This document shows positions 25,646-47,800 of a DNA stretch of 64,000 nucleotides, piece after piece. A program made the position numbers and the translations under genes. Position 1 is the stretch's first letter. Each line of letters opens with the position of its first letter. The DNA comes from Desulfobacterales bacterium (GTDB lineage Bacteria; Desulfobacterota; Desulfobacteria; Desulfobacterales; UBA2245): positions 289,916-353,915 of the forward strand of contig JAXGZF010000004.1 of the NCBI GenBank assembly GCA_040771865.1, read 5' to 3'. Below the pieces are notes generated by a model, which was given only the letters and a program-made list of their open reading frames with translations, did not search any database and had not been told where the DNA came from.

Positions 25646-25766
25646 CGGATTCAATTCATCATATTCAAACCTGCGCCAAAAAGGTGCGAACAAACTTGTC
25701 CATTTTGATGTATTACTTGATCAATTTAATTGAACGGATCACAAAAATTTATTAAGGAGGATGAAA

Positions 25767-27353: not shown

Positions 27354-28450
27354 CGGCCGCCAGTCCCCTTCTTCAGGTCAAAAATATTGTGGTCAAGCGG
27401 GGCGGAATTACTGTTCTGGATATCCCCGACTTTACGCTCAAGCAGGGGGAGGTTCTGTCCCTGCTCGGGCCGAACGGCTCCGGGAAATCCACGCTGCTTC
27501 TGACCTTGTCCAGCCTTTTGAAGCTGCACCAGGGCAAACTGATCTTCAAGGGCCGGGAGATTGACAGCCGCCGGAATGCGCTGGACTATCGACGGCAGAT
27601 CGCCGTCGTATTTCAGGACCCGCTTCTTTTGGATACGACGGTGCTGGACAATGTGGCTTCCGGCCTGAAAATCCGGGGAGTAGAGAATATGAAACGTTTG
27701 CGGATCGCGGAAGAATACCTGGAACGCCTGGGAATTGCCCATCTGGCCAAACGATCCGCATCCAAACTCTCCGGAGGAGAAGCCCAGAGAACCAGTATCG
27801 CCCGGGCCTTTGCGACTCGCCCCACCATCCTTTTTCTCGATGAACCCTTTTCCGCTCTGGATCCGCCCACGCGCGAAGCTTTGATCTCGGATCTCACCCG
27901 CATTCTTCGGGAAACGGACACCACGGCGGTGATTGCCACGCATGATCAGATGGAGGCCCTGCGCCTTTCCAGCCGCATGGCCATTATTCAGCAAGGAAAG
28001 ATCGCTCAGACGGGCTCTGCAGAAGAGGTGATGAATCATCCGGTTAATGAATTTGTCGCCTCCTTTGTCGGAATGGACACGGTCCTGGCCGGCAGGGTCC
28101 GGGAAAACCACGACAAGAACAGAATGATGATTGCCGTCGGCGATCGGGAGATCGAGGCCGTGGGGAATTTCCCTCCGGGAGAGCAGCTCATCTGTTGCAT
28201 TCGTCCCGAGAACGTAACTCTCTCCACGGATTCACCCGAAGAACAGAGCAGCGCTCGAAACAATTTTTCGGGCCGGATTGTGCGCATCGCACCCCACGGA
28301 CTTTTTTACCGCGTTGATCTGGACTGCGGTTTTGAGCTCACTTCTTACATCACCCGTACATCACTGGACAGCCTGGCGCTTCGGGAAGGTATGAAGGTCA
28401 AGGCCTCCTTCAAGGCCACCGCCGTTCATGTGATCCGGAAAACGACATGA
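27350..28450 (+). CDS. tupC: Tungstate ABC transporter ATP-binding protein with C-terminal TOBE-like domain
   Basis: 366-aa ORF with Walker A GPNGSGKST, signature LSGGEAQR and Walker B ILFLDEP. A C-terminal extension of about 120 aa ends ...GMKVKASFKATAVHVI, which is TOBE-like. Confidence 0.85.
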   Translation: MTAASPLLQVKNIVVKRGGITVLDIPDFTLKQGEVLSLLGPNGSGKSTLLLTLSSLLKLHQGKLIFKGREIDSRRNALDYRRQIAVVFQDPLLLDTTVLDNVASGLKIRGVENMKRLRIAEEYLERLGIAHLAKRSASKLSGGEAQRTSIARAFATRPTILFLDEPFSALDPPTREALISDLTRILRETDTTAVIATHDQMEALRLSSRMAIIQQGKIAQTGSAEEVMNHPVNEFVASFVGMDTVLAGRVRENHDKNRMMIAVGDREIEAVGNFPPGEQLICCIRPENVTLSTDSPEEQSSARNNFSGRIVRIAPHGLFYRVDLDCGFELTSYITRTSLDSLALREGMKVKASFKATAVHVIRKTT

Positions 28451-29932: not shown

Positions 29933-31051
29933 TTAGAGCTCGGCGACGATTTTGCCCGTGACGGCGGCTTCGTAGCCGGGAATCGCGTCGATCTCTCTGC
30001 GCAGCGCTGCGGACTGGAGAACGTCCAGAAGGATCTTGACCGTGGGGTGGCCGATCAAGTCGCCGGGAATGACCAGATCGCATCTGACGGCTGTAATGGA
30101 CACAAAATCCAGGCCAAAGGCTTCGGCAATGGCCCTTAATCCCAGGGCGGCATCGGCTACGTTGCAGGCAACGCGGTAGGCGCCTTCTCGGTGGGAGGTC
30201 ACCTCGTTCCGATATCCATTGATGGCGTGTGCATTCACACCGGCGCGCTGCAGACAGTCGTCCAGCAGAATCCGCAGGGCCGCGCCCGGCTCTCGGTTGA
30301 CAAAGCGAACCACGGGCCTGGCGAGATCTGCTGCGGAATGAATGCCCAGGGGGTTGCCCCTGGCCACCATCAGGCCCTCTTCCAGAAGAGAAAATCCCAG
30401 AATGCTTCCGCGCACTCCAGCCAGTTTCTGGCCGGCCAGGACCACATTGGACTCTGTTTTACCCGTGTTGTGCAGGTGGATTCCCGCCACGTGAGTCAAG
30501 CCTTCGGCCAGAGCGTTGAGGGCGCGATGAGTTGAGGCGAACCGGCAGTGTACGCGCGCATCGGGCGCCATACGGGAAACGTAATGGGCGAGGATCTCAA
30601 AGGCCGGATCGCAGCCCATCAGAATGAGGGTTTTATCGAGACAGTTCGCAGGTGAAAAAATCTGAGCGCTTTTTCCGTCCCGGGTCAACACGCCGTCCGC
30701 CGGGCGCAGTCCGAATCCAACGGACTCGGGGCCCTGCAGAGAAATACCCACCAGTCGATCACGGACCATCCCCAAAGCCAGCCGGGATGATGGCGCCTTT
30801 TGACCGTTGATTATATGGACGGGCCGTGTGTCCGGCGGTTCCTGCTCGGCGAACAGGTCTTCCACCCGGCAGTTGAAAATGCGGGCCAGCCGAAGCGCGA
30901 TGGCGGTATTGGGCAGATAGCGCCCGGATTCAATGTCGTAAACCGCCTGGCGCCGGACGTTGATTTCCTCGGCCAGCTTTTCCTGAGACCATCCCCTGGC
31001 CAGTCGGTACTGCTTGACCTTGCACGTAATGGTATTGTTTTGTCGGGTCAT
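29933..31051 (-). CDS. Transcriptional regulator: N-terminal XRE-type HTH + C-terminal periplasmic-binding-protein-like (molybdate/tungstate-type) sensor domain
   Basis: The HTH is VKQYRLARGWSQEKLAEEINVRRQAVYDIESGR. The C-terminal domain of about 270 aa resembles PBP-like domains fused to HTHs near Mo/W genes (assigned from memory of the PF12727-type architecture). The start is ATG 31051 (alternative 31078). Confidence 0.72.
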   Translation of the reverse strand: MTRQNNTITCKVKQYRLARGWSQEKLAEEINVRRQAVYDIESGRYLPNTAIALRLARIFNCRVEDLFAEQEPPDTRPVHIINGQKAPSSRLALGMVRDRLVGISLQGPESVGFGLRPADGVLTRDGKSAQIFSPANCLDKTLILMGCDPAFEILAHYVSRMAPDARVHCRFASTHRALNALAEGLTHVAGIHLHNTGKTESNVVLAGQKLAGVRGSILGFSLLEEGLMVARGNPLGIHSAADLARPVVRFVNREPGAALRILLDDCLQRAGVNAHAINGYRNEVTSHREGAYRVACNVADAALGLRAIAEAFGLDFVSITAVRCDLVIPGDLIGHPTVKILLDVLQSAALRREIDAIPGYEAAVTGKIVAEL

Positions 31052-31315
31052 AGGCCCTTTCTGTTCAAGTTTTCTCATCTATCTGATGAAATCTTATAAA
31101 ATTGTATTGACCAATTTCTTTTCGTATGCAATGAGTTTGTGTCAAATGACAATTAAAAACGTCATAATTGCTTAAATTATACTTTAAACATTGTATAACG
31201 TTATTTGGATACATATTGCAACAGCGGTTTTCAAGCGGTCAGCCCGAATGGCATCGAATATCGCAACAGATGCCGCATGTCATTCAGACTGTCTCAATGT
31301 AGAAATTCACAGGAA

Positions 31316-32199: not shown

Positions 32200-33000
32200 A
32201 TGAAATCAAAAAAGTGGGCGTTATATTTTTTGGCAGTGGTATTGCTGGCGCTGACCGTCATAGGGCTGGGCAATTTTGCAGGAAGCAGTGCTGCTGCGGA
32301 AACCGAGCTGCTCGTATTTGCCGCTGCTTCCACCACCGATGCCATCACTGAAATCGGAGACCTGTATGCAGCCCGGAATATAGGTCGCATCAAACCCTCA
32401 TTTGCTTCATCATCCACGCTGGCCAAGCAGATTGCCAGCGGAGCGCCGGCCGATGTATTTCTTTCGGCCAATCCAAAGTGGATGGACTTTCTTGAAGAAA
32501 AAAATTTACTGTTCAAAGAGACTCGATTCGATCTCTTGGGCAACCGGATTGTCCTGATTGCACCCTTGGACAGCATGATGGGCCAGATCGATGTGAAGCC
32601 CGGATTTTCACTGTCTGCATTGCTGGGCAAGGATGGCCGTTTATCCGTGGGTGATCCGGACCATGTGCCGGCCGGCATGTACGGGAAAGAAGCCCTGCAA
32701 AACCTCGGCGTCTGGGATCAGGTCAAGGATCGTCTGGCGCCGATGAAGGATGTTCGAGCGGCCCTGGTGCTGGTGGAACGCGGAGAAGCGCCCCTGGGAC
32801 AGGTTTATGCCACCGATGCCGCTGTTTCCAAGAAAGTGCGCGTGGTGGGCACTTTTCCGGCCGACTGCCACGCACCCATAGTCTATCCTGTGGCTGCGGT
32901 GTCCGGCGGAAAGACTTCAGAGGTAAAACAGTTTATGGATTTTCTGAAATCACCGGAGGCCCGGGCGGTCTTTGAAAAACATGGTTTTGAAGTGCGTTGA
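32200..33000 (+). CDS. modA: Molybdate ABC transporter substrate-binding protein
   Basis: 266-aa ORF with a signal peptide. LLVFAAASTTDAITEI, FASSSTLAKQIASGAPADVFLSAN, VGDPDHVPAGMYGKEAL and YATDA are typical ModA blocks. Confidence 0.9.
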   Translation: MKSKKWALYFLAVVLLALTVIGLGNFAGSSAAAETELLVFAAASTTDAITEIGDLYAARNIGRIKPSFASSSTLAKQIASGAPADVFLSANPKWMDFLEEKNLLFKETRFDLLGNRIVLIAPLDSMMGQIDVKPGFSLSALLGKDGRLSVGDPDHVPAGMYGKEALQNLGVWDQVKDRLAPMKDVRAALVLVERGEAPLGQVYATDAAVSKKVRVVGTFPADCHAPIVYPVAAVSGGKTSEVKQFMDFLKSPEARAVFEKHGFEVR

Positions 33001-33698
33001 TGGATTTTTTTCACCTGACAGAGGTGGAACTGGAAGCCCTGAGGTTGAGCCTGTGGGTGTCCGGGTGGGCCGTGGCCGCCAGTCTGCCCTTTGGCATACT
33101 GGCGGCCTGGGTTCTGGCCCGCCTGCACTTTCCAGGGAAAAGCCTTCTGGACGGTTTGGTGCATCTGCCGCTGGTATTGCCTCCGGTTGTGACTGGATAT
33201 CTGCTGTTGGTGATGCTCGGCCGCAACGGAATCATCGGCGCGCTGCTGTACAAGTATCTGGGCGTTGTTTTGGCTTTTAACTGGAAAGGGGCCGCGTTGG
33301 CCGCCGCCGTCATGTCTTTCCCTCTGATGGTCCGCGCGGTTCGACTATCTCTGGAAAGTGTGGACCCTGGGTTGGAAGCCGCGGCCCGCACGCTTGGGGC
33401 CGGTCCGGTGCGTGTATTTTTTACGGTTACGCTTCCCCTGATGGCGCCGGGAATTATAACCGGCATTATTCTTGCTTTTGCGCGCAGTCTGGGAGAATTC
33501 GGTGCCACCATCACCTTTGCATCCAACATCCGTGGACAGACCCAGACCCTGCCGCTGGCCCTTTACACGCTGACCCAGGTTCCGGACGGCGAGATGGGGG
33601 CCATGCGGCTGTGCATTCTGTCGGTTTTGATCGCCATAGCCGCGCTGATATGCTCTGAAATATTGGCCCGGCGCTTTGACGCCCGAATGAAAGGATGA
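32997..33698 (+). CDS. modB: Molybdate ABC transporter permease
   Basis: 233-aa polytopic protein with the EAA loop LEAAARTLGAGPVRVFFTVTLPL. Its start overlaps the modA stop. Confidence 0.9.
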   Translation: MMDFFHLTEVELEALRLSLWVSGWAVAASLPFGILAAWVLARLHFPGKSLLDGLVHLPLVLPPVVTGYLLLVMLGRNGIIGALLYKYLGVVLAFNWKGAALAAAVMSFPLMVRAVRLSLESVDPGLEAAARTLGAGPVRVFFTVTLPLMAPGIITGIILAFARSLGEFGATITFASNIRGQTQTLPLALYTLTQVPDGEMGAMRLCILSVLIAIAALICSEILARRFDARMKG

Positions 33699-33704
33699 TT
33701 CGCT

Positions 33705-34820
33705 TTGGAGATCAGCGTGAGGCGCAAACAGGGCGTTTTCAGTATAGACGCCTCTTTTCGGGGGGCCGGATCCGGAGTTACGGCTCTGTTCGGGCCCTCG
33801 GGCTCGGGAAAAACCTCGATCGTCAACATGGTGGCCGGATTGATGCGACCCGATGCCGGCCGCATCGCCATCAACGGTCTTTGCCTGTTTGATTCATCCC
33901 GGGGCATCGATCTGCCGCCGGAAAAGCGTCGCATCGGCTATATTTTTCAGGACGGCCGTCTGCTCCCCCATCTTTCGGTGCGTTCCAACCTGACCTACGG
34001 AATGCACCAGACCCCTATCGGCCGGCGTTTAGTGAATTTTGACCAGGTGGTGGATCTTCTCGGCATCGGTCACCTGCTCCATCGAAGACCGGCCAAGCTT
34101 TCCGGCGGTGAGAAACAGCGCGTGGCCATCGGCCGCGCCCTTTTGACCAGCCCGGCCATGCTGCTCATGGATGAACCGCTGGCCTCCCTGGATGGAGCGC
34201 GCAAGGCAGAGGTGCTGCCCTTTATCATGCGGTTGGGCCGCGAGTTCGCCATTCCCATTCTCTACGTCAGTCATGCTCTGGATGAAATACTCAATCTGGC
34301 GACGCACATGGCGATAATGGAAGAAGGCCGCGTTCTGGCTTGCGGAAACATCGAGGATCTTTTGTCCCGCTCGGACCTGCATACCTTTTTCGGAAGAACG
34401 GAAATCGGAACGGTTATTTCAACAGTGGCCGAAAATCCGAAAGATTCCTTCGGCCTGGCCCATCTGCGTTTTGGCGGCAAGATCCTTAAAGTTCAGGGCA
34501 TTCAGGCAGCCCCGGGCGCCCTGGTACGGGTGCGCATTCCGGCCAGTCATGTAGCCATTGCGCTGGAAGCGCCCGAACATACCAGCCTGCAGAACATATT
34601 CCCCGGAACAATTTGCGAGATACTGGATCAGGGCGAACATTTTGTGGAAGTGCGTCTAGATATCGGATGCTCCCTGTGGGCCCGAATCACCCGGCAATCC
34701 TGTGTGAATCTGGATCTGAAGCCCGGTCTGCCCGTTTTTGCATTGATCAAGAGCGTTGCGGTTTCTCTGGGCGCATCCACCAGAATCGGAACACCGGACT
34801 TCCTGACATCCTGTTTATAG
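33705..34820 (+). CDS. modC: Molybdate ABC transporter ATP-binding protein (with C-terminal TOBE/Mop-like domain)
   Basis: 371-aa ORF with a TTG start. Walker A is GPSGSGKTS, the signature is LSGGEKQR and Walker B is MLLMDEP. The C-terminal ...LVRVRIPASHVAIAL... region is TOBE-like. Confidence 0.88.
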   Translation: MEISVRRKQGVFSIDASFRGAGSGVTALFGPSGSGKTSIVNMVAGLMRPDAGRIAINGLCLFDSSRGIDLPPEKRRIGYIFQDGRLLPHLSVRSNLTYGMHQTPIGRRLVNFDQVVDLLGIGHLLHRRPAKLSGGEKQRVAIGRALLTSPAMLLMDEPLASLDGARKAEVLPFIMRLGREFAIPILYVSHALDEILNLATHMAIMEEGRVLACGNIEDLLSRSDLHTFFGRTEIGTVISTVAENPKDSFGLAHLRFGGKILKVQGIQAAPGALVRVRIPASHVAIALEAPEHTSLQNIFPGTICEILDQGEHFVEVRLDIGCSLWARITRQSCVNLDLKPGLPVFALIKSVAVSLGASTRIGTPDFLTSCL

Positions 34821-35111
34821 CCGGGCGTTTGAGAAATATTAAGATTCAAACCTTTCTCGGACGCAATTTGCATTGGATGCAATGCATCCGAATGTATTGA
34901 TCTTCAGCTATCCCTCTCCAATCGATTCCTGATTTCTCGATCCATTTTTTATTATGTTTTTTATTGACATCGAGGGATTGTATGATATTTAACTGTGCCT
35001 TAAATGACATATATCAGGATCGGCATATCATGACTTCATTCAGGCCGCAAATTTGGTTTTGCACCCTGATGAAATGAATCGGCAATAAATGTGTTGCAAA
35101 AGGAGTTTCCA

Positions 35112-36875: not shown

Positions 36876-37295
36876 ATGCAATCGATCAGGCCTGTTTTAC
36901 GGCTGCACCTGTGGCTGGAAACCGATGACGGACTGGTGTTTGGTTTCGGCCGCGCCAAGCTGTTGCAGAATGTTGAGGAATGCGGTTCCCTGAAAAAAGC
37001 TGCCGAGGCCCTGGGGATGTCCTACCGGGCGGCCTGGGGAAAGATAAAACAGTCCGAGGCGGTTCTGGGAAGCCAGTTAATTCAAAAGACCGGGAGCAAC
37101 CGCAGCGGGTATGAGCTGACGCCTTTTGGCAAGGGCATCACTGAAAAATTCATGTCCTGGTTTGACAGGGTTGAAAAGAATGCACTGCAGGAAGCGGCCG
37201 CTATTTTCCCTTGGATGTCCGAACCCTATCAGGAAGAGCGTGTTTCGGAAGAAAGCGCCGCGGCTTCAGGCGGTGATGAAAAGTTTTCCGACTGA
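36876..37295 (+). CDS. ModE N-terminal-domain-only winged-helix regulator (no Mop/TOBE sensor domain), paralog 1
   Basis: LRLHLWLETDDGLVFGFGRAKLLQNVEECGSLKKAAEALGMSYRAAWGKIKQSE follows the ModE/LysR-type HTH pattern (GSI..AA..LGMSYR.AW). The ORF ends after about 140 aa, with no di-Mop domain. Confidence 0.7.
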   Translation: MQSIRPVLRLHLWLETDDGLVFGFGRAKLLQNVEECGSLKKAAEALGMSYRAAWGKIKQSEAVLGSQLIQKTGSNRSGYELTPFGKGITEKFMSWFDRVEKNALQEAAAIFPWMSEPYQEERVSEESAAASGGDEKFSD

Positions 37296-37424
37296 TTATT
37301 TCGCGTCGGCGCAGAAGGCCGGTAGGACTCCGTTCCTTCTGCCCGCGCGCGGATCTGTTATTAAAAACCAACCTCTATGCCGCTTTAAGATCCGGCCGGA
37401 GGATGAATCGGTACTTTCGGGCAT
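37296..37424 (-). pseudogene. 5' remnant of fdhE left downstream of fdhB copy 1
   Basis: The minus-strand ATG at 37424 gives MPESTDSSSGRILKR..., versus MPESTESSSGRILKG... at the start of the intact fdhE (42734). Similarity then disappears and the frame stops after 42 codons. The flanking DNA is near-identical to 42700-42820. Confidence 0.55.
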
Positions 37425-37453
37425 AAAACACTCCAATCTCGTGGATGCATGTG

Positions 37454-37487
37454 AAAAAGGGAGGGAGATTCACATCTCCCTCCCTTT
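37454..37487 (-). terminator. Rho-independent terminator-like hairpin after fdhB copy 1
   Basis: GGGAGGGAGAT-(4 nt loop)-ATCTCCCTCCC forms a perfect 11-bp GC-rich stem at 37459-37484. On the minus strand it is followed by TTTTT. Confidence 0.7.
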
Positions 37488-37508
37488 CTGATGATGGATC
37501 CTATCGGG

Positions 37509-38252
37509 TTATCCCAACAGGTTTCTGACAGTCCGCTTCAGGGGCGCCGTCATCTTGGAGATGGCGGCCATTCGAGAGATGCCCGCCGGACCCTGAGCTA
37601 CCAGATTCTTGTGATAGAATTCCGGTTTGTCCGTGATCAGGTAAATGACCCGGACCTCTTCCGCGTCGATCAACTGGGCTTCGGGAAATTCTTTCTTTAC
37701 AATGGCGAGCCGTTTTTGCGCCTCTTCAAGCATCTTCTCCCGGTCTCCAAAAAGGATCGCCCTGGTGATGCAGACCTTTGCGCACATGGGAATAAGCCCG
37801 GCAGCCACCCGCTCGAAGCACATGTCGCATTTGTTAATGACTCCGGTGGCGTCGTCGCGTCTCGGAATATCATAGGGGCATGCGCTTTTCATCTCGTCGA
37901 AGGCTTCCTTGGGCAATTCCTTGATCTTTTCGGTATAAACCACCGCGCCTGTGGCTTCGTCGATGATGACAGCGCCCTGCACATATTGGTTGGCAATATC
38001 CTTGCAAGGCGGCTGGAGGCAGTGGCGGCACTGGTCGCTCAAGAAATTCCACGTGACGCGATCGCCGATTTTATGCTCCTGAAAACGAACGATCTTGTAG
38101 TTCCTGGGATTCAGATCGGGCGGATTCTGATGGCTTCCCCAACCCAGCTGTGTTGTTTTGTTAGCCTGGAAGCCCTGCCATTCCTTACAGGCGACCTGGC
38201 ATCCACGGCACGCCGTGCACCGGGTTACATCAATGAAAAATGATTTTGACAT
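37509..38252 (-). CDS. fdhB: Formate dehydrogenase iron-sulfur (beta) subunit, copy 1
   Basis: 247-aa ORF with multiple ferredoxin-type Cys clusters (CTACRGCQVACKEW, CRHCLQPPC, CPYDIP, CDMCFERV...PMCAKVC). It lies immediately downstream of fdhA. Confidence 0.9.
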   Translation of the reverse strand: MSKSFFIDVTRCTACRGCQVACKEWQGFQANKTTQLGWGSHQNPPDLNPRNYKIVRFQEHKIGDRVTWNFLSDQCRHCLQPPCKDIANQYVQGAVIIDEATGAVVYTEKIKELPKEAFDEMKSACPYDIPRRDDATGVINKCDMCFERVAAGLIPMCAKVCITRAILFGDREKMLEEAQKRLAIVKKEFPEAQLIDAEEVRVIYLITDKPEFYHKNLVAQGPAGISRMAAISKMTAPLKRTVRNLLG

Positions 38253-38312
38253 ATTGTTCCTCCCTTTTTAATAAGCGGGCGAGCATGGGTCCGTCCGCCC
38301 GCTTTTTCATTT

Positions 38313-41300
38313 TTATGACAGTTCGGTCACCTTGTCCGCCTTCCGGATATTGACGAGGCAGGCCTTTGATTCTTGAATGGTGGTATTCGGATCGCCCGCC
38401 GAGATACACAGACGGTTGGTTGAATCGCCACACCCCGGAGTTGTCCAGCCGAAGCAGAACGGCATTCCGATCAGGTGGACGGTCTTGCCCTGAATCTTGA
38501 ACGGAGTGATGCGCATGGTGACCATGGCCGCAGCTTCAACCCGGCCTCTCGCGCTTTCGATAATCACGCCGTCGCCGTTCTTGATCCCCTTTTCCTTGGC
38601 CAGCTCCTCGCTCATCTCCACATAAAGCATGGGCTCGGCTTCAAGCAGGGGGGGAGTGTTTCTCGTTTCACTGCCGCTGCACCAGTGCTCTGTCAGGCTG
38701 TAGGTGGTCAGAACAATCGGATACTTGGGATCTCCCGGAACGGCAAGCTTGTCCATATCGCTTTGGATGACCTTTGCGCACGGGTTGTTCAGTTGATTTG
38801 AGAACAGATGCTTCTTAACAGGGGTTTCAATCGGCTCATAATGCTCCGGAAACGGACCGTCAACAAGTCCGGGGCCGAAAAGGCGTCCAAATCCCTCCGT
38901 CTGCATGATAAACGGATGTGTGCTTTTTCCTGATGAGACCGGCGGCGCTCCGCCATCGGGGACATCGCCGATCCATTTGCTTCCGTCCCATTCGATAACG
39001 GCACGAGAAGGGTCCCACGGTTTCCCGTTTAAATCAACCGATGCCCGGTTGTACAGAATTCTGCGGTTGACCGGCCAGCACCATGAAAATTTTGGAAAGA
39101 GTCCCAATTTGGCTTCCCTCTCGTTCTGCGTCAGATCGCGGTTTTTCGTCTGGTTGCCCTGTTCCGTAAAACTGCCGGCATATATCCAGTTTGGACAAGC
39201 CGTTGAACCGTCATCTGCGAATTCGGTAAAACTGGACACCTGGGTTCCCTTTTTGGGGCCGCTTACATAATAGCCGTTGCATTTTTTCGCAATTAATTCA
39301 GCATCGTATCTGTCATAAAAATCCATGTTCACAATAGGTCCAGGGAATGCACCGCCCTTTTCCTTGTACAGTCTCTTCACTTCGTTCATAATATCGATCA
39401 TGGTCTGTCCCATGGCTCTCGAGTCGCCCCTGGGTTTCGTGGCCTGATAGTGCCACATTATCCATCTTCCGCTGTTGGCGACAGAGCCTTCTTTCTCAAC
39501 GCGGTGGCTTGACGGGAAAAGGAAAACCTCTGTTTTGATATCTTTCGGATTAATGCCCGGACCATGCCAGAAATCCGTTGTTTCGTTGTGAAAGATGTCC
39601 GCAATAAACACCCAGTCGAGATTCCCCATGGCTTTCCTTATCTTGTGGATGTTTGGAAGGGACTGCGCGGGATTGGAGCCGAAAATTGAACCACCTTTCA
39701 TCCCGCCTTTATACATTCTGTCAAAATAAAACATAAAGGAATTGTCGCCCGCGTCCCAGCTTGCAGCCGCATCGAGTTTCGGAAGCCAGCTGTATCTAAA
39801 ATCGTTTTCCCTGGTTGCCGCGTCGCCGTACCAGGCTTTCAGCAGGCTGACCACGTATTTCGGGCGGTTCTGCCACCAGTTGACGCTTGCAGGATCTTTG
39901 GAGATCGGAGTAAACTTTTTATTGTAATCCGCAAGCGTAGGAAGATCGGCACGGGGCATCGGGTGATAGCCCGGAAGCTTATCGTACAGTATGGCATAGT
40001 CTGTTGCTCCCTGCACGTTGGGTTCGCCTCTCATGGCGTTGACGCCGCCGCCGGCGATGCCGATGTTGCCGAGCAGAAGCTGGACGATGCCGCCCGTGCG
40101 GATGTACTGAACGCCTACGGTATGCTGGGTCCAGCCAAGGGCATACAGGATGGTTCCGGCTTTGTCGGGTTTTCCAGTTGCTGTGTATAATTCATAGACT
40201 TTATTAATTTTTTCAACAGGTACGCCTGTAACCTCGGATACCTTTTTGATGTCGTATCTGGAATAATGCTTCTTCAGCAGCTGGAAAACACATCGGGGAT
40301 CCTGAAGGGTTTTATCCTTTTTCGGAATGCCGTTGGCGTCGTACTCGAATTTCCAGCTCGATTTGTCATACAGTTTCTTCTTTGCATCATATCCCGAGAA
40401 CAATCCGTCGTTGAATTTAAATTTATCGCTGACGATAAATGCCGCGTTCGTATAATTGACTACATAATCTTTAAAGTATTTGCCGTTGTCGATTATATAT
40501 TTGATCATGCCACCCACAAAAGCAATGTCGGTGCCCGAACGAATCGGCACATGGAGGTCCGCTCTCGCAGAGGTCCTTGAAAATTTGGGGTCGACGTGAA
40601 TGATTTTTGCGCCTCTTTCTTCCTTTGCCCGCATTATCCATCGAAAAACCATGGGATGATGCTCGGCCGCGTTGCTGCCGATGATTAAACAGCAATCCGT
40701 ATTCTTTACATCAATATAGTGATTTGTCATCGCACCGCGGCCGAAACATTGCGCAAGTGCCGGGACGGTTGAACTGTGGCACACGCGCGCCTGATGGTCC
40801 ATATTTACAATGCCAAGACAAGCCACCGCCTGACGTGTAACGGATAGTTCTTCATTGGTCATTTGCGATGAACCCATGTGGAACATTTCATCCACGCGGT
40901 TTACGACCTGACCTGCCGCATTCTTTTCTTTAAAATATTTGTCTCTTGTATCTTTAATGCGCCTGGCGACTTCCTTAACCATCCAGTCGTAATCCCTCTC
41001 CACCCATTGGTCGCTGTTCGGCGCGCGGTACAAAGGCTTGAGCAATCTGTTATCGCTGTTGATCTGGGACAGCATTGCCGCGCCTTTTGCGCACAGGGCG
41101 CCTTCGCTGACCGGATAGTCGGCGTCGCCTTCCGTACTGACAACCTTGCCGTTTCTGACATGGGCTATATACTGGCAAATGACCGAACAATAAGGACAGC
41201 TTGTGAGGACTTCCGTAGCGCCCCTGATCTTCAGCTCCTTTGCATAGGCTGTCGCGGGCCCCAGACCGAAACCCACCTGGCTCAGGGCGATTGCTGCCGC

Positions 41301-41345
41301 CCCGGCGCCCGTTACCTTCATAAAACCCCGCCGTGTAACTTCCAT
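38313..41345 (-). CDS. fdhA: Periplasmic formate dehydrogenase catalytic (alpha) subunit, Cys-type, copy 1
   Basis: Has a Tat signal (MEVTRRGFMKVTGAGAAAIAL) and an N-terminal 4Fe-4S motif (CPYCSVIC...LCAKG). The bis-MGD family blocks are present. The active-site stretch is HQARVCHSSTV, with TGC (Cys) where copy 2 has TGA. The start at 41345 is preceded by GAAGGAGG. Confidence 0.92.
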   Translation of the reverse strand: MEVTRRGFMKVTGAGAAAIALSQVGFGLGPATAYAKELKIRGATEVLTSCPYCSVICQYIAHVRNGKVVSTEGDADYPVSEGALCAKGAAMLSQINSDNRLLKPLYRAPNSDQWVERDYDWMVKEVARRIKDTRDKYFKEKNAAGQVVNRVDEMFHMGSSQMTNEELSVTRQAVACLGIVNMDHQARVCHSSTVPALAQCFGRGAMTNHYIDVKNTDCCLIIGSNAAEHHPMVFRWIMRAKEERGAKIIHVDPKFSRTSARADLHVPIRSGTDIAFVGGMIKYIIDNGKYFKDYVVNYTNAAFIVSDKFKFNDGLFSGYDAKKKLYDKSSWKFEYDANGIPKKDKTLQDPRCVFQLLKKHYSRYDIKKVSEVTGVPVEKINKVYELYTATGKPDKAGTILYALGWTQHTVGVQYIRTGGIVQLLLGNIGIAGGGVNAMRGEPNVQGATDYAILYDKLPGYHPMPRADLPTLADYNKKFTPISKDPASVNWWQNRPKYVVSLLKAWYGDAATRENDFRYSWLPKLDAAASWDAGDNSFMFYFDRMYKGGMKGGSIFGSNPAQSLPNIHKIRKAMGNLDWVFIADIFHNETTDFWHGPGINPKDIKTEVFLFPSSHRVEKEGSVANSGRWIMWHYQATKPRGDSRAMGQTMIDIMNEVKRLYKEKGGAFPGPIVNMDFYDRYDAELIAKKCNGYYVSGPKKGTQVSSFTEFADDGSTACPNWIYAGSFTEQGNQTKNRDLTQNEREAKLGLFPKFSWCWPVNRRILYNRASVDLNGKPWDPSRAVIEWDGSKWIGDVPDGGAPPVSSGKSTHPFIMQTEGFGRLFGPGLVDGPFPEHYEPIETPVKKHLFSNQLNNPCAKVIQSDMDKLAVPGDPKYPIVLTTYSLTEHWCSGSETRNTPPLLEAEPMLYVEMSEELAKEKGIKNGDGVIIESARGRVEAAAMVTMRITPFKIQGKTVHLIGMPFCFGWTTPGCGDSTNRLCISAGDPNTTIQESKACLVNIRKADKVTELS

Positions 41346-41574
41346 TTGTTGCCTCCTTCGATTTGTTTTCATGATTTATTGCCTGCAACCTTTTCAGCGC
41401 TTGTTCGGAGATCACGTTGCCGCTTCCATTCGATGCCGGCTGAAATTTCCTCGCAAGCCCTGATATGTAAATTTCGTCGAGCCATTTATATAATCAATTA
41501 TTCAAATTGAAGGAATAAATGACATAATGCAGTACGGTTGTCAATAGATTTTATAGAAAAATGCTATAATATTA

Positions 41575-41594
41575 ATATGTTATGGCAAACATAT
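41575..41594. promoter_or_regulatory. Near-palindrome ATATGTTA-N4-AAACATAT upstream of fdhA copy 1 (candidate operator)
   Basis: Read from the sequence. It occupies the same position and has the same 8-4-8 architecture as the perfect palindrome upstream of fdhA copy 2. It lies within an otherwise partly diverged leader/promoter region. Confidence 0.35.
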
Positions 41595-41757
41595 AAAAAA
41601 GGGCATCCGGCGTGGTGGGAAAAATATTACGCGGAAATTTCCCGGCGAACAGGAAACGATCCTTGCGGGGGTTTTACAGAAGAAAGCGGTTTATTGAAAA
41701 TAGGGCGAAGATTGTTGTTGGTGAGATCGCTCTTTTACGGCCGCTTGCCGCAAAATT

Positions 41758-41786
41758 ATAAGCTCGCCTTTGAACGGCGAGCTTAT
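41758..41786 (-). terminator. Hairpin downstream of fdhE (possible terminator)
   Basis: ATAAGCTCGCC-(7 nt)-GGCGAGCTTAT forms a perfect 11-bp stem about 70 nt after the fdhE stop. On the minus strand it is followed by AATTTTG, a weak U-tract. Confidence 0.4.
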
Positions 41787-41855
41787 GAAATTCAAATCGA
41801 ATGGGGTGGGTTGATCCGGCTCTTACAGAAGATCCGATCCGGTTCGTATTTGGTA

Positions 41856-42734
41856 TTAAAACCCAACCTCTATACCGCTTTTAAATCCGGTTTCCGCTGC
41901 CTTGATATCCAGATGCGGAGTGGAAATATATTCCAGGGGCGGATAAATTTCCCGGTCTGTTTTCCGGGTGTCCACGGTCTTGATGTATTTTCCGCACTTG
42001 TCGCAGACGTCCAGACGGTGCTCTTCCTCGCTCTCAATTTCGAAATAGTGAAGGGCGTTGTGGTCCGTATTGTCGCAGAAGGGGCAGAATATTCTTTTCG
42101 TGGCCCATTTGTGCCAGCAGAAGCTGCAGCAGAAGAACCGCTTCCCGTTTTCCTCGAATATCGAAATCGCCGGGAGCGACCCGCAGATCGGGCAGTATCC
42201 CTTTTCCCAGGGCTGGTTCTTGTCCAGATAACTTGAAAGCTGCTTTGCGCACCGGGCCAGCGAGGGTTTCACGCTGCTGTAGACAATGAAGCCCAGCGTT
42301 TTTTTATCGATTTTAAGCTCGTCTGAGACTTTTTGAAAAAAAGTTTCGTCCGATTTCAGAAACGCGGCAAAAAGCGCGTTTAAATCCAGTTTCCCGGCTT
42401 CCACGGCTTCGGCAATCTTTTTGGCGGATTCAGACATTGCTCCGGACGCCTGCTGAACGATTTCGCACAGATTTTTGAACAGCGCCGCGGCTGCCCTGGA
42501 ATCGATTGCAAACTGCGAAATGTCGATGAGCGGAAATCCTTCTTTTACTTTTAGAGCCAGGGCGTCTGCGGAAATTTCCAAGGGTTCGATACGGGTCTGA
42601 TTTGCCGAATCCTCCTGAGCGATAAAAATCTTTTCATAGAAATCGATCAGGTCGGAATAATTCGGCTTCAGCTTTCGGATTTCTTCCAGCCCCTTTAAGA
42701 TACGGCCGGAGGATGACTCTGTGCTTTCGGGCAT
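41856..42734 (-). CDS. fdhE: Formate dehydrogenase accessory protein FdhE
   Basis: Has four CxxC pairs in the FdhE arrangement (CPICGS, CSFCWHKW, CPFCDN, CDKCGKY). The start at 42734 (MPESTESSSG) has the RBS GGAG. Confidence 0.88.
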   Translation of the reverse strand: MPESTESSSGRILKGLEEIRKLKPNYSDLIDFYEKIFIAQEDSANQTRIEPLEISADALALKVKEGFPLIDISQFAIDSRAAAALFKNLCEIVQQASGAMSESAKKIAEAVEAGKLDLNALFAAFLKSDETFFQKVSDELKIDKKTLGFIVYSSVKPSLARCAKQLSSYLDKNQPWEKGYCPICGSLPAISIFEENGKRFFCCSFCWHKWATKRIFCPFCDNTDHNALHYFEIESEEEHRLDVCDKCGKYIKTVDTRKTDREIYPPLEYISTPHLDIKAAETGFKSGIEVGF

Positions 42735-42763
42735 AAAACACTCCAATCTCGTTGATGCATGTG

Positions 42764-42818: not shown

Positions 42819-43562
42819 TTATCCCAATAGATTTCTGACGGACCGCTTCAGGGGTGCCGTCAGTTTGGCGATGGCGGCCATCCGTGAGATGCCCGCCGGC
42901 CCCTGCGCTACCAGATTCTTGTGATAGAATTCCGGTTTGTCCGTGATCAGGTAAATGACCCGGACCTCTTCCGCGTCGATCAACTGGGCTTCGGGATAGT
43001 CTTTCTTGACAACGGCGAGCCGTTTCTTCGCCTCATCCATCATCTTCTCCCGGTCTCCAAAGGTGATCGCCGAGGTGGGGCAGGACTTTGCACACATGGG
43101 AATGAGTCCGGCGGCCACCCGCTCGTAGCACATGTCGCATTTGTTAATGACTCCGGTGGCGTCGTCGCGTCTCGGAATATCATAGGGGCATGCGCTTCTC
43201 ATCTCGTCGAACGCTTCCTTGGGCAGCTGCTTGGCTTTGTCGGTATAAATTACCGCACCCGTGGCATCGTCGAAGACGACGGCGCCCTGCATATAGCCGT
43301 CGGCCATGTCCTTGCAGGGCGGCTGGAGGCAGTGGCGGCACTGGTCGCTCATGAAGTTCCACGTAACCTTGTCGCCGATTTTATGCTCCTGAAAACGAAC
43401 GATCTTAAAGTTTTTGGGATTCAGATCGGGCGGATTCTGATGGCTTCCCCAGCCGATCTGCGTGGTCTTGTTTGCAGCGAATCCCTGCCATTCCTTGCAG
43501 GCGACCTGGCATCCCCGGCACGCCGTGCATCGTGTTACATCGATCAAAAATGTCTTTGACAT
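42819..43562 (-). CDS. fdhB: Formate dehydrogenase iron-sulfur (beta) subunit, copy 2
   Basis: 247-aa ORF, collinear with copy 1 and identical to it at most positions. The same Cys clusters are present. Confidence 0.9.
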   Translation of the reverse strand: MSKTFLIDVTRCTACRGCQVACKEWQGFAANKTTQIGWGSHQNPPDLNPKNFKIVRFQEHKIGDKVTWNFMSDQCRHCLQPPCKDMADGYMQGAVVFDDATGAVIYTDKAKQLPKEAFDEMRSACPYDIPRRDDATGVINKCDMCYERVAAGLIPMCAKSCPTSAITFGDREKMMDEAKKRLAVVKKDYPEAQLIDAEEVRVIYLITDKPEFYHKNLVAQGPAGISRMAAIAKLTAPLKRSVRNLLG

Positions 43563-43621: not shown

Positions 43622-46600
43622 TTATGACAGTTCGGTCAACTTGTCCGCCTTTTTGATGTTGACAAGGCAGGCTTTGTATTCAGGAATGGAGGTGTTCGGA
43701 TCGCCCGCCGAGACGCACAGACGGTTGGTGGCGTCGCCCACTCCGGGAGTAGTCCAGCCAAAGGCAAAGGGCATTCCGATTTCATGAACGGTCTTGCCCT
43801 GAATCTTGAACGGGGTCATGCGCATAGTGACCATGGCCACGGCCTCGACCCTTCCTCTGGCGCTTTCGACAATCACGCCGTCGCCGTTCTTGATTCCCTT
43901 TTCCTTGGCCAGTTCCTCGCTCATCTCTACGTAAAGCTGGGGTTCGGCTTCCAGCAAAGAGGGCACGTTTCTCGTCTCCCCGCCGCCGCACCAGTGTTCC
44001 GTCAGGCTGTAGGTGGTTAGAACGATGGGATACTTCGAATCGCCCGGGACTGCCCGCTTGTCGAGTTCGCTTTCAATCACCTTGGCGCAGGGGTTGTTGA
44101 GCTGTTTGGAGAAGGGGTGCTTCTTGACCGGGGTTTCGATCGGTTCGTAATGCTCGGAGAACGGCCCTTCCTCGCGTCCGGGGCCGTAAAGCGCGCCGTG
44201 CCCTTCCTTCTGCATGATGAAGGGGTATTTGCCCTGTCCGGTTGCCATCGGAGGCCAGCCGCCGTCAGGCACGTCGCCGATCCACTTGTTGCCATCCCAC
44301 TCGATGACAACTCGGGTCGGATCCCAGGGCTTGCCGTTCAGGTCGACCGAAGCCCGGTTGTACAGGACTCTCCGGTTGACCGGCCAGCACCACGAATAGC
44401 CTGGGAAGAGGCCGATTTTGGCCTGCAGGTCGGTCTGGGACAGGCCGCGATTCTTCATCTTGTTGCCCGCCTCTTCAGTATAGCTTCCGGTGTAGAGCCA
44501 GTTCCGGGAGCTGGTCGATCCGTCGTCGGCCAGATTGGCGAAGCTGGGCACAAGGGACCCTGCCTTGTATGTCTTGTCTTTAATGGTGGTGTCTTTGAGG
44601 AAGAAACCGTTGCATTCTTTCGCGATTTGTTCCGCATCGAAATGGGAGGGCCAGTTCAGGTTCACAATCGGTTCCGGAAATACGCCGCCTTCTTCCCTGT
44701 AAAGCTTTCGCACCGCGTTCATGATTTCCACCATGGTCTCGCCCATGGATTTGGATTCGCCTGCCGGTTCGGCGGCCTTGTAATGCCACAATACCCAGCG
44801 TCCGCTGTTGCTGATGCTGCCTTCCTTTTCCACGCGGTGGCAGGCTGGGAACAGGAACACTTCGGTTTTGATGTCCTTGGGGTTGACCCCGGGCCGGTGC
44901 CAGAAATCGGTGGTCTCATTTTGATGGATTTCGGAGATGTACAGCCAGTCCAGGTTGTCCATCGCTTTCCGGACCTTGGTTGTGTTGGGTATGCTCTGGG
45001 CCGGGTTGTGCGCCCAGACCGAGCCGCCCTTGATTTTCCCCTTGTACATCCGGTCGAATATATGCAGGTGTGAATAGTCGCCCTGCACGAGACCTTTTGG
45101 CGTATCGCCCTTCGGAACCCAGCTATAGGCGAAATCGTTTTCCTTTGTCGCTGCGTCGCCGAACCAGGATTTCAGCAGGCTGACCACGTATTTCGGGCGG
45201 TTCTGCCACCAGTTGGCGCTCAGGGGATCCTTGGTGACCGGTGTGTTGGCCTTGTTGTAATCGGCCAGGGTGGGCCAGTGTGACCGGGGTACCGAATGAT
45301 AGCCGGGCAGGATATGATAGAGAATGCAGTGGTCGGTGGAACCCTGAACGTTGGGCTCGCCGCGCAGCGCGTTGATGCCGCCGCCGGCAACGCCGATGTT
45401 GCCCAGCAGCAGCTGAACGATCGCGCTGGTCCGGATGTTCTGAACGCCGACCGTATGCTGGGTCCATCCCAGGGCGTACATGACCGTTCCGGCCTTGTTC
45501 TTTTGTCCGGTCGCGGCATACGTTTCATACACCTTGAGCAGATTTTTTTCTGAAACGCCGGTGATCGCCGAAACATTCTTTAAATCGTACCGGGAGTAGT
45601 GTTTCTTCAGAAGCTGGAAAACGCATCTTTTATTCTTGAGAGTCTTGTCTCTTTTCGGAACTCCGTTGGCGTCCACATCAAACGCCCAGGCTTTTTTGTC
45701 GTAGGTGCTCAAATTCTTGTCAAAGCCGGAAAACAGGCCGTCTTTGAAACCGAATTTTTCGCCGACGATAAACGATGCGTTGGTGTATTCCGTTACGTAT
45801 TCCTTGAAGTATTTTTCTTTGTCGATAATGTACTTGATCATGCCGCCCAGAAACGCGATATCCGTTCCGGAGCGAAGGGGCACGTGAAAATCGGCCCGTG
45901 CCGAGGTTCTGGAGAATTTGGGGTCCACATGGATGATGGTCGCGCCTCTTTCCTCCCTGGCCTTCATAACCCATTTGAAACAGATGGGGTGATGCTCGGC
46001 GGCATTGCTGCCCATAATCAAGGCACAGTCCGTGTTTTTAATATCAATCCAGTGATTGGTCATCGCGCCGCGTCCGAACGACTCTCCCAGAGCCGCAACA
46101 GTTGCGCTGTGTCAGATACGGGCCTGATGATCCATGTGGACGACGCCCATGGCTCGCAGCGCCTGATGAACGATGGCGCATTCCTCGTTGCTCATCTGGG
46201 AGGAGCCCAGGTGAAAAATTTCCTCCACCCGGTTGACGACCTGTCCGCTTTCATTGGTGGCTTTAAAGTTTTTGTCGCGGGTGTCCTTGATCCGCCGCGC
46301 CAAATTTTCCAGCATCCACTCCCAGCTCTTTTCTTCCCACTTGTCGCTGTACGGAGCGCGGTACTTGGGCTTCAGGACTCTGTGGTGGCTGTTGATCATG
46401 GAATTCATGGTCGCGCCTTTTGCGCACAGGGCGCCTTCGCTGACCGGATAGCCCGGATCGCCTTCGGTGCTCACAACCTTGCCGTCCCTCACATGCGCAA
46501 TGTAATGGCAGCAGACTGAACAGAACGGGCAGATCGAGATGACTTCCTTGGCGCCCTTGATCTTCAGCTCCTTTGCATAGGCTTTCGCGGGTCCCAGACC

Positions 46601-46678
46601 GAAACCCAGCTGGCTCAGGGCGATTGTCGCCGCCCCGGCGCCGGTTACCTTCATAAAAACTCGCCGTGTTACATCCAT
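43622..46678 (-). CDS. fdhA: Periplasmic formate dehydrogenase catalytic (alpha) subunit, selenocysteine-type, copy 2 (in-frame UGA at 46114..46112)
   Basis: Track ORFs 46112..46678 and 43622..46063 are in the same frame, separated only by TGA. Reading through gives ...HMDHQARI-U-HSATVAALGESFGRGAMTNHW. This aligns with HQARVCHSSTV...GRGAMTNHY of copy 1 and with the known Sec position of FDH-type enzymes. A Tat signal (MDVTRRVFMKV) is present and the RBS is AAGGAGG. Confidence 0.9.
46078..46111 (-). promoter_or_regulatory. Candidate bacterial SECIS hairpin immediately 3' of the UGA codon
   Basis: The mRNA after the UGA reads CACAGCGCAACUGUUGCGGCUCUGGGAGAGUCGUUCGG. GCGGCUCU-GGG-AGAGUCGU can form a stem of about 8 bp (including G-U pairs) with a G-rich apical loop, starting 15 nt after the UGA. 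I folded this by eye only, and an alternative smaller hairpin (CGCAA-CUG-UUGCG) exists. Confidence 0.4.
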
Positions 46679-46925
46679 TAGTTGCCTCCTTCGATTGTCT
46701 TACTGATGATTTGTAACCTGCAACCTTTTCAGCGCTTTTACCAGGATCACGCAGCTTCCGTTTGTTGCCGGAGAAGGTTTTCCTCCTGAATAGACTTGCC
46801 GCAAGCTCTGATATTAAAAAGCGTCGAGTTATAATTTACGGAATCGATCATTCCAGTTTCTATCTTATTTGATATAGAGGGATCGAATTGTCAAGGCTTT
46901 TTGAAATAAAAATGTAATAATTTTA

Positions 46926-46945
46926 ATATGTTACGAATAACATAT
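46926..46945. promoter_or_regulatory. Perfect palindrome ATATGTTA-CGAA-TAACATAT upstream of fdhA copy 2 (candidate operator)
   Basis: Read from the sequence; the 8-bp arms are perfectly complementary. It lies about 250 nt upstream of the fdhA2 start, and a counterpart sits at 41575-41594. Confidence 0.35.
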
Positions 46946-47099
46946 ATCGGGGCGGCTGGCAGAACAATATGTGCTTTCGGAAAATAATTTGACATCAGTT
47001 AAGCAATATGTCATTTATGACATAAATAAAAAACAACTTCCGCTCTTGGAAAGCTGAATATCGAAATGAAGGACCCGCATCTTCAGAAAGGAGGCGACG

Positions 47100-47438
47100 A
47101 TGCATATGATCCGGCAGGACAAAATAAGAGCGACGGACATCGGAGTCGCGGCGTCTATTATAGGGCGTCTGGGTTTTGATATGAAGCCGGCCGCGGCTTA
47201 TGCATCGAGCCTTAAATTCCAGGGTGTCCGGGAGATGAGCTGCATCTGCCCGCTTTGCTCCGCTGGCTGTCGCTGTATTGCCCACGTGCAAGGCGGTGAG
47301 GTTGTCCGAACCGAAGGCGCCGGTGATCTGGTCAGAAACGGTGATCCGGTCAGAAACAGCGAATGCGCTCTGCGCTCAAAAGGCGCCGCCATGCTGCCGG
47401 TGATCGCGGCGGAACTGAACATCCTTGACGGGAAATAA
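47100..47438 (+). pseudogene. Degenerate N-terminal fragment of a third fdhA (Tat-signal and 4Fe-4S domain region only)
   Basis: The 112-aa ORF aligns with the first ~95 residues of FdhA. LGFDMKPAAAYASSLKFQGVREMSCICPLCSAGCRCIAHVQGGEVVRTEG matches LGFGLGPAKAYAKELKIKGAKEVISICPFCSVCCHYIAHVRDGKVVSTEG. The twin-arginine motif is lost (IRQDKIRA). The LCAKG Cys position is Arg. An 18-bp tandem duplication is present and the frame ends soon after. A strong RBS (AAAGGAGG) is retained. Confidence 0.55.
47322..47357 (+). repeat. 18-bp tandem direct repeat inside the fdhA fragment
   Basis: GGTGATCTGGTCAGAAAC / GGTGATCCGGTCAGAAAC differ at one position and encode GDLVRN-GDPVRN. The intact paralogs have a single unit at this place. 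Confidence 0.9.
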
Positions 47439-47800
47439 GTTCCGGTCCGAAAATGATCATGAGAACAGGTCGGCCTTGAAAATGCAAGAATCCGTGCAGT
47501 GGAGCCCGCCCGTATTATGATAAAAAATTTCGGAACGTCCACAGGAATGACTCCCCGCCAGCTGCTTTCGATCTGTCAAGATTTCAGAACGTCCCTCTCT
47601 TGCGACCTCATAGAGTTTGAAAAACATTTTTGTTTATGCTAATTTGAACATAATTTTATTCGCTGCCTTTTTGAACTCAGGTTGAGCGCGGCATTCAAGA
47701 AAACAGCCAGGCTTTGGCCGGCGCTCGACAGCGGGCATGTTTGAATTGCCGAATTTATGTGCTCGATTAATCGAATGATTCCGTTAACAGAGGGCCGTAA

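Follow-up and report, generated by a model that had tools for sequence, protein, structure and literature searches.

Two short ModE-type regulators beside formate dehydrogenase genes

A stretch of 64,000 nucleotides (nt) from a Desulfobacterales bacterium, the whole of which is termed the window here, carries a molybdenum/tungsten (Mo/W) island with formate dehydrogenase (FDH) genes. The FDH region is flanked on either side by a gene for a small stand-alone regulator of the ModE type, M1 and M2 respectively (Table 1). The length of M1, 139 amino acids (aa), is counted from an ATG; the longest open reading frame (ORF) begins at a GTG at position 36867. M2 has 126 aa. The two are paralogues with 44% identity over 124 aa (E-value = 2e-37) and have in common the motif ECGSL..AA..GMSYRAAWGKIK, the recognition helix GMSYRAAWGKIK being identical in both. 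The C-terminal end of M1 is SEESAAASGGDEKFSD. M1 is the last gene of a co-directional run consisting of modABC, an FmdE/MoCF fusion gene and M1; the FmdE/MoCF gene ends 90 bp upstream of M1, there is no terminator in this gap, and a terminator-like hairpin is found after M1 at 37338–37353. M1 and fdhB1 converge. M2 and fdhA2 diverge, with M2 pointing away from the FDH genes; these two are 1.1 kb apart, and an ORF that is a remnant of FdhA lies between them.

The sole Pfam domain in M1 and M2 is the helix-turn-helix (HTH) domain HTH_1 (E-values = 5e-12 and 5e-11; 45.9 and 42.8 bits, cutoff 26.6), situated N-terminally as in LysR-type transcriptional regulators (LTTRs). In NCBIfam the top model is the ModE N-domain TIGR00637, with 47 and 50 bits against a curated cutoff of 98.5. 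No TOBE/Mop domain, the canonical C-terminal tandem of ModE, is detected in either protein with Pfam and NCBIfam, and by Pfam the C-terminal effector domain of LysR proteins (substrate-binding, PBP type 2) is also absent from these chains of 126–139 aa. The alignment to E. coli ModE (1b9m) is limited to 1b9m residues 8–101, and the chains reach as far as ModE residue ~120; thus M1 and M2 stop where ModE runs on into the Mop domains.

A family profile built from 28 members shows the short Agrobacterium tumefaciens ModE (2ijl) as the best sequence match in the PDB (7e-12), with E. coli ModE at 5.5e-10 and the best LysR regulator at 3e-5. Matches of M1 and M2 to LTTRs are confined to the HTH and are far weaker than those to ModE. 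The AlphaFold2 (AF2) model of M2 (pLDDT 91.9) displays a compact winged HTH and a long C-terminal helix, with the last residues predicted to be disordered. The top Foldseek match of this model is the E. coli ModE N-domain (1b9m), with a root mean square deviation of 1.6 Å over 87 columns; 2ijl gives a TM score of 0.74. Homologues are labelled "LysR family transcriptional regulator" by NCBI because of the HTH_1 domain. The family profile, and for M2 the predicted fold, place M1 and M2 with the ModE type and not with generic LysR-type proteins. A reading of the DNA made earlier from the letters alone (the sequence-only reading) had described two paralogous regulators consisting of the ModE N-domain, without a Mop/TOBE domain, at the outer edges of the FDH region. 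All of this stands, and a reassignment to a generic LysR-type family is not borne out. It had also stated that both genes read towards the FDH genes, which is correct for M1 only.

Close homologues are all short (73 of 73, 77–186 aa) with HTH_1 only. At E ≤ 1e-10 an exhaustive profile search yields 2,416 cluster representatives; among the best 150, 146 are 95–221 aa in length. Relatives are encoded at 539 loci in GTDB species genomes, mostly in Desulfovibrionales, Syntrophobacterales and Desulfobacterales; the nearest is a locus of Desulfobacteraceae bacterium UBA2245 (L001), with ~91% nt identity. The possibility that M1 and M2 are gene remnants or pseudogenes is ruled out by the size of the family, the uniform short length and the confident fold.

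ModE-box-like palindromes in the window

The regions upstream of fdhA1 and fdhA2 are 75% alike and have in common the palindrome ATATGTT-N6-AACATAT. The 18-bp form TATGYY-N6-RRCATA, which resembles a ModE box, is present four times in the window, where none is expected, and all four copies are inside the FDH island. Boxes 1 and 2 are found 31 and 32 nt upstream of TTGACA −35-like hexamers on the minus strand (41539–41544 and 46889–46894). Box 3 is the closest match to the cross-genome consensus described below and is conserved in L001. Box 4 is the probable site of autoregulation of M2.

A position weight matrix (PWM) for the box, built without the window and without L001, gives the window boxes 21–29 bits, with a null maximum of 16.4 bits. 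Upstream of the window modA (position 32200) or the tupA genes no box scores above this maximum, the best sites being borderline ones at 24167 and at 34991–35030. The latter are possible degenerate boxes or half-sites that score within the null range and overlap a promoter-like element at 35004–35031; counterparts are found upstream of FmdE/MoCF genes in three related loci (L008, L022 and L035).

The box in related genomes

The pattern TATGYY-N6-RRCATA was taken from the window sites themselves and was therefore tested on 80 related loci. In 1.10 Mb of these there are 55 occurrences, with 0.5 expected from local shuffles. Of 59 box sites 43 are intergenic, although intergenic DNA makes up 14% of the sequence. 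Across genomes the consensus reads TATGTCA-N4-TGACATA. In other genomes 17 sites are situated 53–213 nt upstream of fdhA, and 14 of 52 are upstream of the regulator gene; further sites are found upstream of tupA (four), FmdE/MoCF (two) and modA (one). The half-site TATGTTA is enriched in boxes close to fdhA, and TATGTCA at other targets.

Nine fdhA promoters of divergent genomes (the two in the window and those of the loci L001, L006, L010, L028, L043, L055 and L080) display the box either 20–21 or 31–32 nt upstream of TTGAC(A). The longer spacing, seen in both window promoters, is one helical turn beyond the shorter. With the −35 hexamers matched to the consensus, the box is centred near −65 or −75.

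Within 500 bp of a regulator gene there are 0.22 boxes per kb, and beyond 1.5 kb the density is ~0.02 per kb. This bears on whether the palindromes are operators of some other regulator, for example the HTH_3 plus PF12727 protein encoded in the island, with M1 and M2 acting elsewhere or binding DNA constitutively without a metal input. The link between M1/M2 and the box is a predicted one, and a second regulator of the Mo/W type is indeed present in the island and also in L028, L043 and L080. However, these are only 3 of the 80 loci, the box has the geometry of a ModE box, and the density peak near ModE-N genes includes loci without FDH or HTH_3-PBP genes. We give this alternative little weight. 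Binding of the boxes by M1 and M2 is predicted, and the co-occurrence of box and regulator supports it well.

The duplicated FDH genes

The M1 and M2 sequences fall into two separate clades of a neighbour-joining tree. The M1 clade is linked to FDH genes, with the usual order FmdE/MoCF (~100 bp upstream), ModE-N, fdhD, box, fdhA, fdhB and fdhE; among its members are the Nitratidesulfovibrio loci L071, L074, L075 and L079. At least five other assemblies carry one paralogue from each clade, and so the two-paralogue arrangement is common in the phylum.

After M1 the island contains, on the minus strand, fdhB1-fdhA1, fdhE and fdhB2-fdhA2, followed by the FdhA remnant ORF and M2. FdhA1 and FdhA2 are 71% identical and differ in having cysteine (TGC) versus selenocysteine (Sec; TGA). 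A sub-threshold Rfam match to SECIS_3 (46059–46117) is situated at the fdhA2 TGA. The fdhB1-fdhA1 block (37394–41853) is a 4.46-kb insertion relative to L001 and is 76% identical to the fdhB2-fdhA2 block; L001 lacks it yet retains both regulators. The ancestral layout is therefore FmdE/MoCF, M1, fdhE fdhB fdhA(Sec), remnant and M2. Judged by this sequence comparison, the Cys copy is a recent addition that came with a duplicated promoter and box. fdhA1B1 looks like a selenium-independent backup FDH.

The sequence-only reading had listed heterodimerisation of the two paralogues as one option, and had raised a split Mo/W regulatory system that controls the choice of FDH isoenzyme. M1/M2 heterodimers, or competition between M1 and M2, might thus select the FDH isoenzyme by Mo versus W. 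Such a choice would be in keeping with the shared recognition helix, the presence of one paralogue per clade in other assemblies and the half-sites that differ between fdhA boxes and other targets. It is nevertheless improbable. A Mo/W-dependent choice of isoenzyme is unsupported because the fdhA1 and fdhA2 boxes are almost the same (in promoters 75% identical), because the Cys copy is recent and missing from a locus that keeps both regulators, and because a Cys versus Sec difference points to selenium.

The FmdE/MoCF protein as candidate sensor

The gene upstream of M1 encodes a protein consisting of an FmdE domain, a treble-clef zinc finger and a MoCF_biosynth domain, the last being MoeA domain III/MogA-like and molybdopterin-binding. 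The best PDB match is 3d00, FwdE (E-value = 1e-64), and residues 375–529 match MoeA/MogA. In FmdE proteins two intertwined subunits form a dimer that has a cleft and a metal site, FHGHxC (PMC2954224). The window FmdE domain displays FHGYAAPG in place of the metal-binding FHGHxC, the same variant as 3d00, in which an anion site takes the place of the Zn site and is occupied (PMC2954224). The authors of the FmdE structures speculated on regulation or metal sensing and noted an FmdE-PF00994 architecture, but not an HTH fusion (PMC2954224). At its C-terminal end the FmdE/MoCF protein has a Cys-rich tail, CQECKVCVFPRCP, shared by the stand-alone MoCF protein of Nitrospirota.

An FmdE/MoCF gene directly adjoins ModE-N, in either order, in 20 of the 80 loci. 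In the long family member P0208, FmdE, a zinc finger and ModE-N form one chain, and its 120 best matches all carry PF02663 and PF00126, with 58–100% identity and lengths of ~320–340 aa. These fusions are mostly from Nitrospirota and Thermodesulfovibrionales. The fusion genes directly follow an fdhA(Sec)-fdhB-cytb-fdhE operon or another molybdopterin oxidoreductase operon, and a MoCF_biosynth gene overlaps or abuts their 3′ side. This Nitrospirota MoCF gene product shares 41% identity with residues 224–564 of the window FmdE/MoCF protein (E-value = 2e-98), and the FmdE parts of the fusion and the window protein match at E = 2e-12. Thus the window has FmdE-zinc finger-MoCF and a separate ModE-N, and Nitrospirota have FmdE-zinc finger-ModE-N and a separate MoCF. 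Since the three modules are found together at FDH-type operons but are partitioned differently, they provide Rosetta-stone and neighbourhood evidence for joint action. A rare fusion of MobA, the molybdenum cofactor (Moco) guanylyltransferase, with ModE-N is found in three metagenomic clusters (P0214, P0341 and P0342); by sequence this is a second link of the ModE-type DNA-binding domain to proteins that handle Moco.

The missing Mop domain could also be supplied in trans, as a Mop/molbindin protein that is encoded elsewhere, docks on M1 and M2 and confers molybdate or tungstate sensing. Small Mop-only ORFs are in fact found within a few kb of ModE-N in L028, L080 and L078, and family member P0189 combines the HTH with two TOBE domains. 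A six-frame hidden Markov model (HMM) scan of all 64 kb, however, shows no stand-alone Mop/TOBE gene; TOBE is present only in two ABC-transporter ATPases. As a conserved partner Mop is ruled out, being a neighbour in only 3 of the 80 loci, against 20 for FmdE/MoCF. A Mop protein docking on M1 and M2 is thus, of the explanations weighed here, the one in which we place the least belief. Sensing by the C-terminal tails, also suggested from the sequence alone, is rejected, as the tails differ between family members in both length and sequence, and the end of M2 is predicted to be disordered. What stands of the earlier idea of a split regulator is that a split is plausible, with FmdE/MoCF and not Mop as the indicated partner.

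Proposed regulation of the FDH genes

The boxes upstream of fdhA1, fdhA2, the FdhA remnant and M2 suggest that M1 and M2 control the FDH genes and regulate their own expression. As dimers they would recognise the 18-bp palindromes, and the FmdE/MoCF-M1 operon may be a further target through the degenerate sites at 34991–35030. Action on the FDH promoters, which had been anticipated from the sequence alone, is very probable given the boxes upstream of fdhA1, fdhA2 and M2 and their conservation in other genomes. M1 and M2 are probably activators at the fdhA promoters, since a box upstream of the −35-like TTGACA and centred near −65 or −75 fits activation better than promoter occlusion.

M1 and M2 lack an oxyanion-binding domain. 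Their signal would most likely be the state of the Mo/W cofactor, relayed in trans by the FmdE-zinc finger-MoCF protein, whose gene is probably co-transcribed with M1. On balance we lean towards the reading that M1 and M2 regulate the FDH genes through the boxes with input from the FmdE/MoCF partner or from cofactor status. A more specific proposal, a Mo/W-cofactor switch of three parts (FmdE-zinc finger, ModE-type DNA-binding domain and MoCF) in which FmdE serves as a detachable module for sensing, is tentative and carries less than even odds. Such a switch would couple FDH transcription to the molybdopterin cofactor, or to an oxyanion at the anion/metal site of FmdE.

Alternatively, M1 and M2 may bind the boxes and sense Moco, the tungsten cofactor (Wco) or an intermediate directly or via general proteins of the Moco pathway, FmdE/MoCF being only a co-regulated gene for FDH cofactor maturation. 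The evidence from boxes and synteny applies equally to this explanation, FmdE/MoCF is homologous to MoeA/MogA-like cofactor biosynthesis proteins, and most M2-clade genes have no adjacent FmdE gene. There is also a precedent in A. tumefaciens, where according to Hoffmann et al. (2016) the short ModE reportedly requires Moco-biosynthesis genes, and not direct molybdate binding, to repress modA; this speaks equally for the reading with an FmdE/MoCF or cofactor input. Sensing without a partner would leave unexplained the covalent FmdE-ModE-N fusion in a large Nitrospirota family, as well as the joint but differently partitioned occurrence of the three modules, and we consider it rather unlikely.

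Several observations weigh against regulation through the boxes with an FmdE/MoCF input. Of 79 related loci, only 29 have a strict box within ±8 kb. The cross-genome test does not depend on window DNA, yet it reuses the pattern taken from the window sites. The −35 assignments are consensus matches only, and no obvious TTGACA is seen in Syntrophobacter-type promoters. Both proteins score under the curated TIGR00637 cutoff. In other genomes M2-clade genes do not adjoin FDH or FmdE genes; their neighbours are of a housekeeping type, for example pnp/rpsO and a MATE-like membrane transporter, as judged by sequence inspection with crude ORF calling, noisy where the GC content is high. In the Nitrospirota fusion loci neither the TATGYY-N6-RRCATA box nor a clear alternative palindrome is found. 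The AF2 model of an FmdE-ModE-N fusion shows no confident inter-domain packing (pTM 0.53) and a disordered 24-residue linker at positions 190–213, although its two folded modules are compatible with modules able to work when split. FmdE/MoCF could simply be a co-regulated cofactor-maturation enzyme, and in A. tumefaciens the upstream gene co-transcribed with the short ModE is reportedly dispensable for its activity.

Comparison with known regulators

E. coli ModE (1b9m, 1o7l) has the same N-terminal winged-helix fold as M1 and M2, a 6-N6-6 palindrome geometry equal to that of the predicted operator, and a similar link to Mo-enzyme and Mo-transport genes. However, it carries the di-Mop/TOBE molybdate-binding domain, shares about 28% identity with M1 and M2, and has the recognition helix SYKSAWDAIN in place of SYRAAWGKIK. 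The consensus of its box is TATATA-N6-TATATA (PMC545781), with the core TATATA versus TATGYY here, and no strong box is found at the window modA.

The short A. tumefaciens ModE (Atu2564, "ModE(S)", 2ijl), like M1 and M2, consists of the DNA-binding domain only (about 135 aa); in M1 and M2 this single domain likewise makes up the entire protein. It belongs to a distant subfamily, about 25% identical to M1 and M2, and represses modABC, whereas the boxes here are at FDH genes and the regulator itself. Its other feature, repression of modABC via Mo-boxes in the modA promoter, has no counterpart in the PWM scan of the window. The M1 subfamily also differs in its conserved FmdE/MoCF neighbour and FmdE fusions.

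Rodionov et al. (2004) found genes with a single ModE DNA-binding domain in Desulfovibrio and Desulfotalea and described their Mo-sensing mechanism as "not clear" (PMC545781). The motif CGGTCACG-N14-CGTGACCG was tentatively assigned at mod operons, and the report does not include the fdhA box TATGYY-N6-RRCATA or an FmdE link (PMC545781). These sulfate-reducer genes are from the same phylum as M1 and M2 and are in the same Mop-less state. The mod-operon motif is said to have been credited later to TunR.

The ModE of Methanosarcina acetivorans has an experimentally shown box, RTTATGT-N8-RCATAAY, and its DNA binding in vitro is insensitive to molybdate (PMC12327845). The TATG-N10-CATA spacing is the same as in the boxes here. 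However, this ModE is from an archaeon and still has one Mop domain, and the genes under its control are those for nitrogenase and transporters. TunR and TaoR/TupR of Desulfovibrio also act in Mo/W homeostasis in the same organisms, and a TaoR/TupR-like gene is present in the window. Their DNA-binding domains, reportedly XerC/D-like in TunR (work of Kazakov in 2013) and XRE-type in TaoR/TupR (Rajeev, 2019), are said to be joined by oxyanion-sensing domains of their own. These DNA-binding domains are unrelated to M1 and M2.

The 2004 report and the 2ijl structure mean that a Mop-less ModE class was already known, and M1 and M2 belong to it. From the sequence comparisons, the FDH-linked subfamily seems to represent a new form within this class, set apart by a conserved operator and by an FmdE/MoCF partner that is fused in another phylum. 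No description of an FDH-linked subfamily with this box and FmdE link was found in the literature searched, with several key papers lying outside that search. In sulfate reducers and syntrophs, FDHs play a central part in interspecies formate transfer and in biotechnology for CO2 reduction. Mo, W and Se are known to affect the expression of these enzymes, but the regulators are poorly defined. For a Mop-less ModE the present analysis offers a concrete operator sequence, a set of genes predicted to be controlled (fdhA, the regulator's own gene and, in some genomes, FmdE/MoCF and tupA genes) and a candidate partner for sensing, which gene fusions and a conserved neighbourhood support. If true, the proposal would explain by what means a Mop-less ModE senses metal status and would give a role to the uncharacterised FmdE domain.

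Other features of the island

The island begins with tupA-tupA-tupB-tupC (24791–28450), followed by the HTH_3 plus PF12727 gene, a DUF364 gene, modABC (32200–34820), FmdE/MoCF and M1.

Table 1. Features of the Mo/W and FDH island, in window coordinates
Feature	Position	Strand	Evidence or remarks
M1, stand-alone ModE-type winged-helix regulator, 139 aa	36876..37295	+	Pfam, NCBIfam, profile, paralogue alignment
M2, second stand-alone ModE-type winged-helix regulator, 126 aa	47801..48181	+	Pfam, NCBIfam, AF2, fold search; own upstream box
Box 1, TATGTTATGGCAAACATA	41576..41593		204 nt upstream of fdhA1 ATG; PWM 21.5 bits
Box 2, TATGTTACGAATAACATA, perfect 8-N4-8 palindrome	46927..46944		249 nt upstream of fdhA2 ATG; PWM 25.2 bits
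Box 3, TATGTCATTTATGACATA	47007..47024		76 nt upstream of FdhA remnant ORF; PWM 29.4 bits
Box 4, TATGCTAATTTGAACATA	47635..47652		149 nt upstream of M2 ATG; PWM 23.4 bits
Possible degenerate boxes/half-sites (..TGACATA..GGCATA..), borderline	34991..35030		upstream of FmdE/MoCF-M1 operon; PWM 14.2 and 13.1 bits
FmdE-treble-clef zinc finger-MoCF_biosynth fusion, 564 aa	35091..36785	+	Pfam
fdhB1, FDH iron-sulfur subunit	37509..38252	-	Pfam, NCBIfam
fdhA1, periplasmic (twin-arginine translocation, Tat) FDH alpha subunit, Cys variant, predicted target	38313..41372	-	TGC aligned to Sec position
fdhE, FDH accessory protein	41856..42746	-	Pfam, NCBIfam
fdhB2, FDH iron-sulfur subunit	42819..43562	-	Pfam, NCBIfam
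fdhA2, FDH alpha subunit, Sec variant, predicted target	43622..46678	-	in-frame TGA 46112–46114
112-aa ORF, remnant of FdhA N-terminus	47100..47438	+	Tat motif degenerate, CxxCxxxC retained
HTH_3 + PF12727 (PBP_like) regulator, TaoR/TupR-like	29933–31078	-	domains; adjoins tupA-tupA-tupB-tupC
Two tandem TupA-like tungstate-binding proteins	24791–25645, 25761–26654	+	before one permease and one ATPase
TupC-like ABC-transporter ATPase with TOBE	27350–28450		TOBE HMM scan
ModC-like ABC-transporter ATPase with TOBE	33705–34820		TOBE HMM scan

The HTH_3 plus PF12727 architecture is presumably that of the TaoR/TupR tungstate regulators of Desulfovibrio, and the protein is probably the direct oxyanion sensor of the island. 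In L028, L043 and L080 the related genes are directly upstream of ModE-N. The two TupA-like proteins score 169 and 241 bits with the NCBIfam TupA model, which has a cutoff of 400.

The FdhA remnant ORF, which L001 also contains, has a ribosome binding site (RBS); it could be either part of a pseudogene or a gene for a small protein that is expressed.

The 5′ regions of fdhA1 (41373–41575) and fdhA2 (46679–46926) are long (~200–250 nt) and conserved between the box/promoter and the start codon, with an invariant block, GCGCTGAAAAGGTTGCAGG, near the RBS. Neither a Moco riboswitch nor another RNA sensor is found in these leaders, which have no Rfam match at the gathering threshold and could contain an uncharacterised leader element. 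A stretch similar to ATTGAAATCATTGA is situated on the promoter-proximal side of the fdhA box in eight related loci (L006, L028, L043, L055, L080, L020, L035 and L061), where it may extend the operator, form a second site or act like an UP element.

In L053 a 440-aa ORF (10518–11837, minus strand) with two C-terminal TOBE domains is found near the ModE-N gene and modABC. It may be a TunR-like protein, with a recombinase-like DNA-binding domain fused to a di-Mop.

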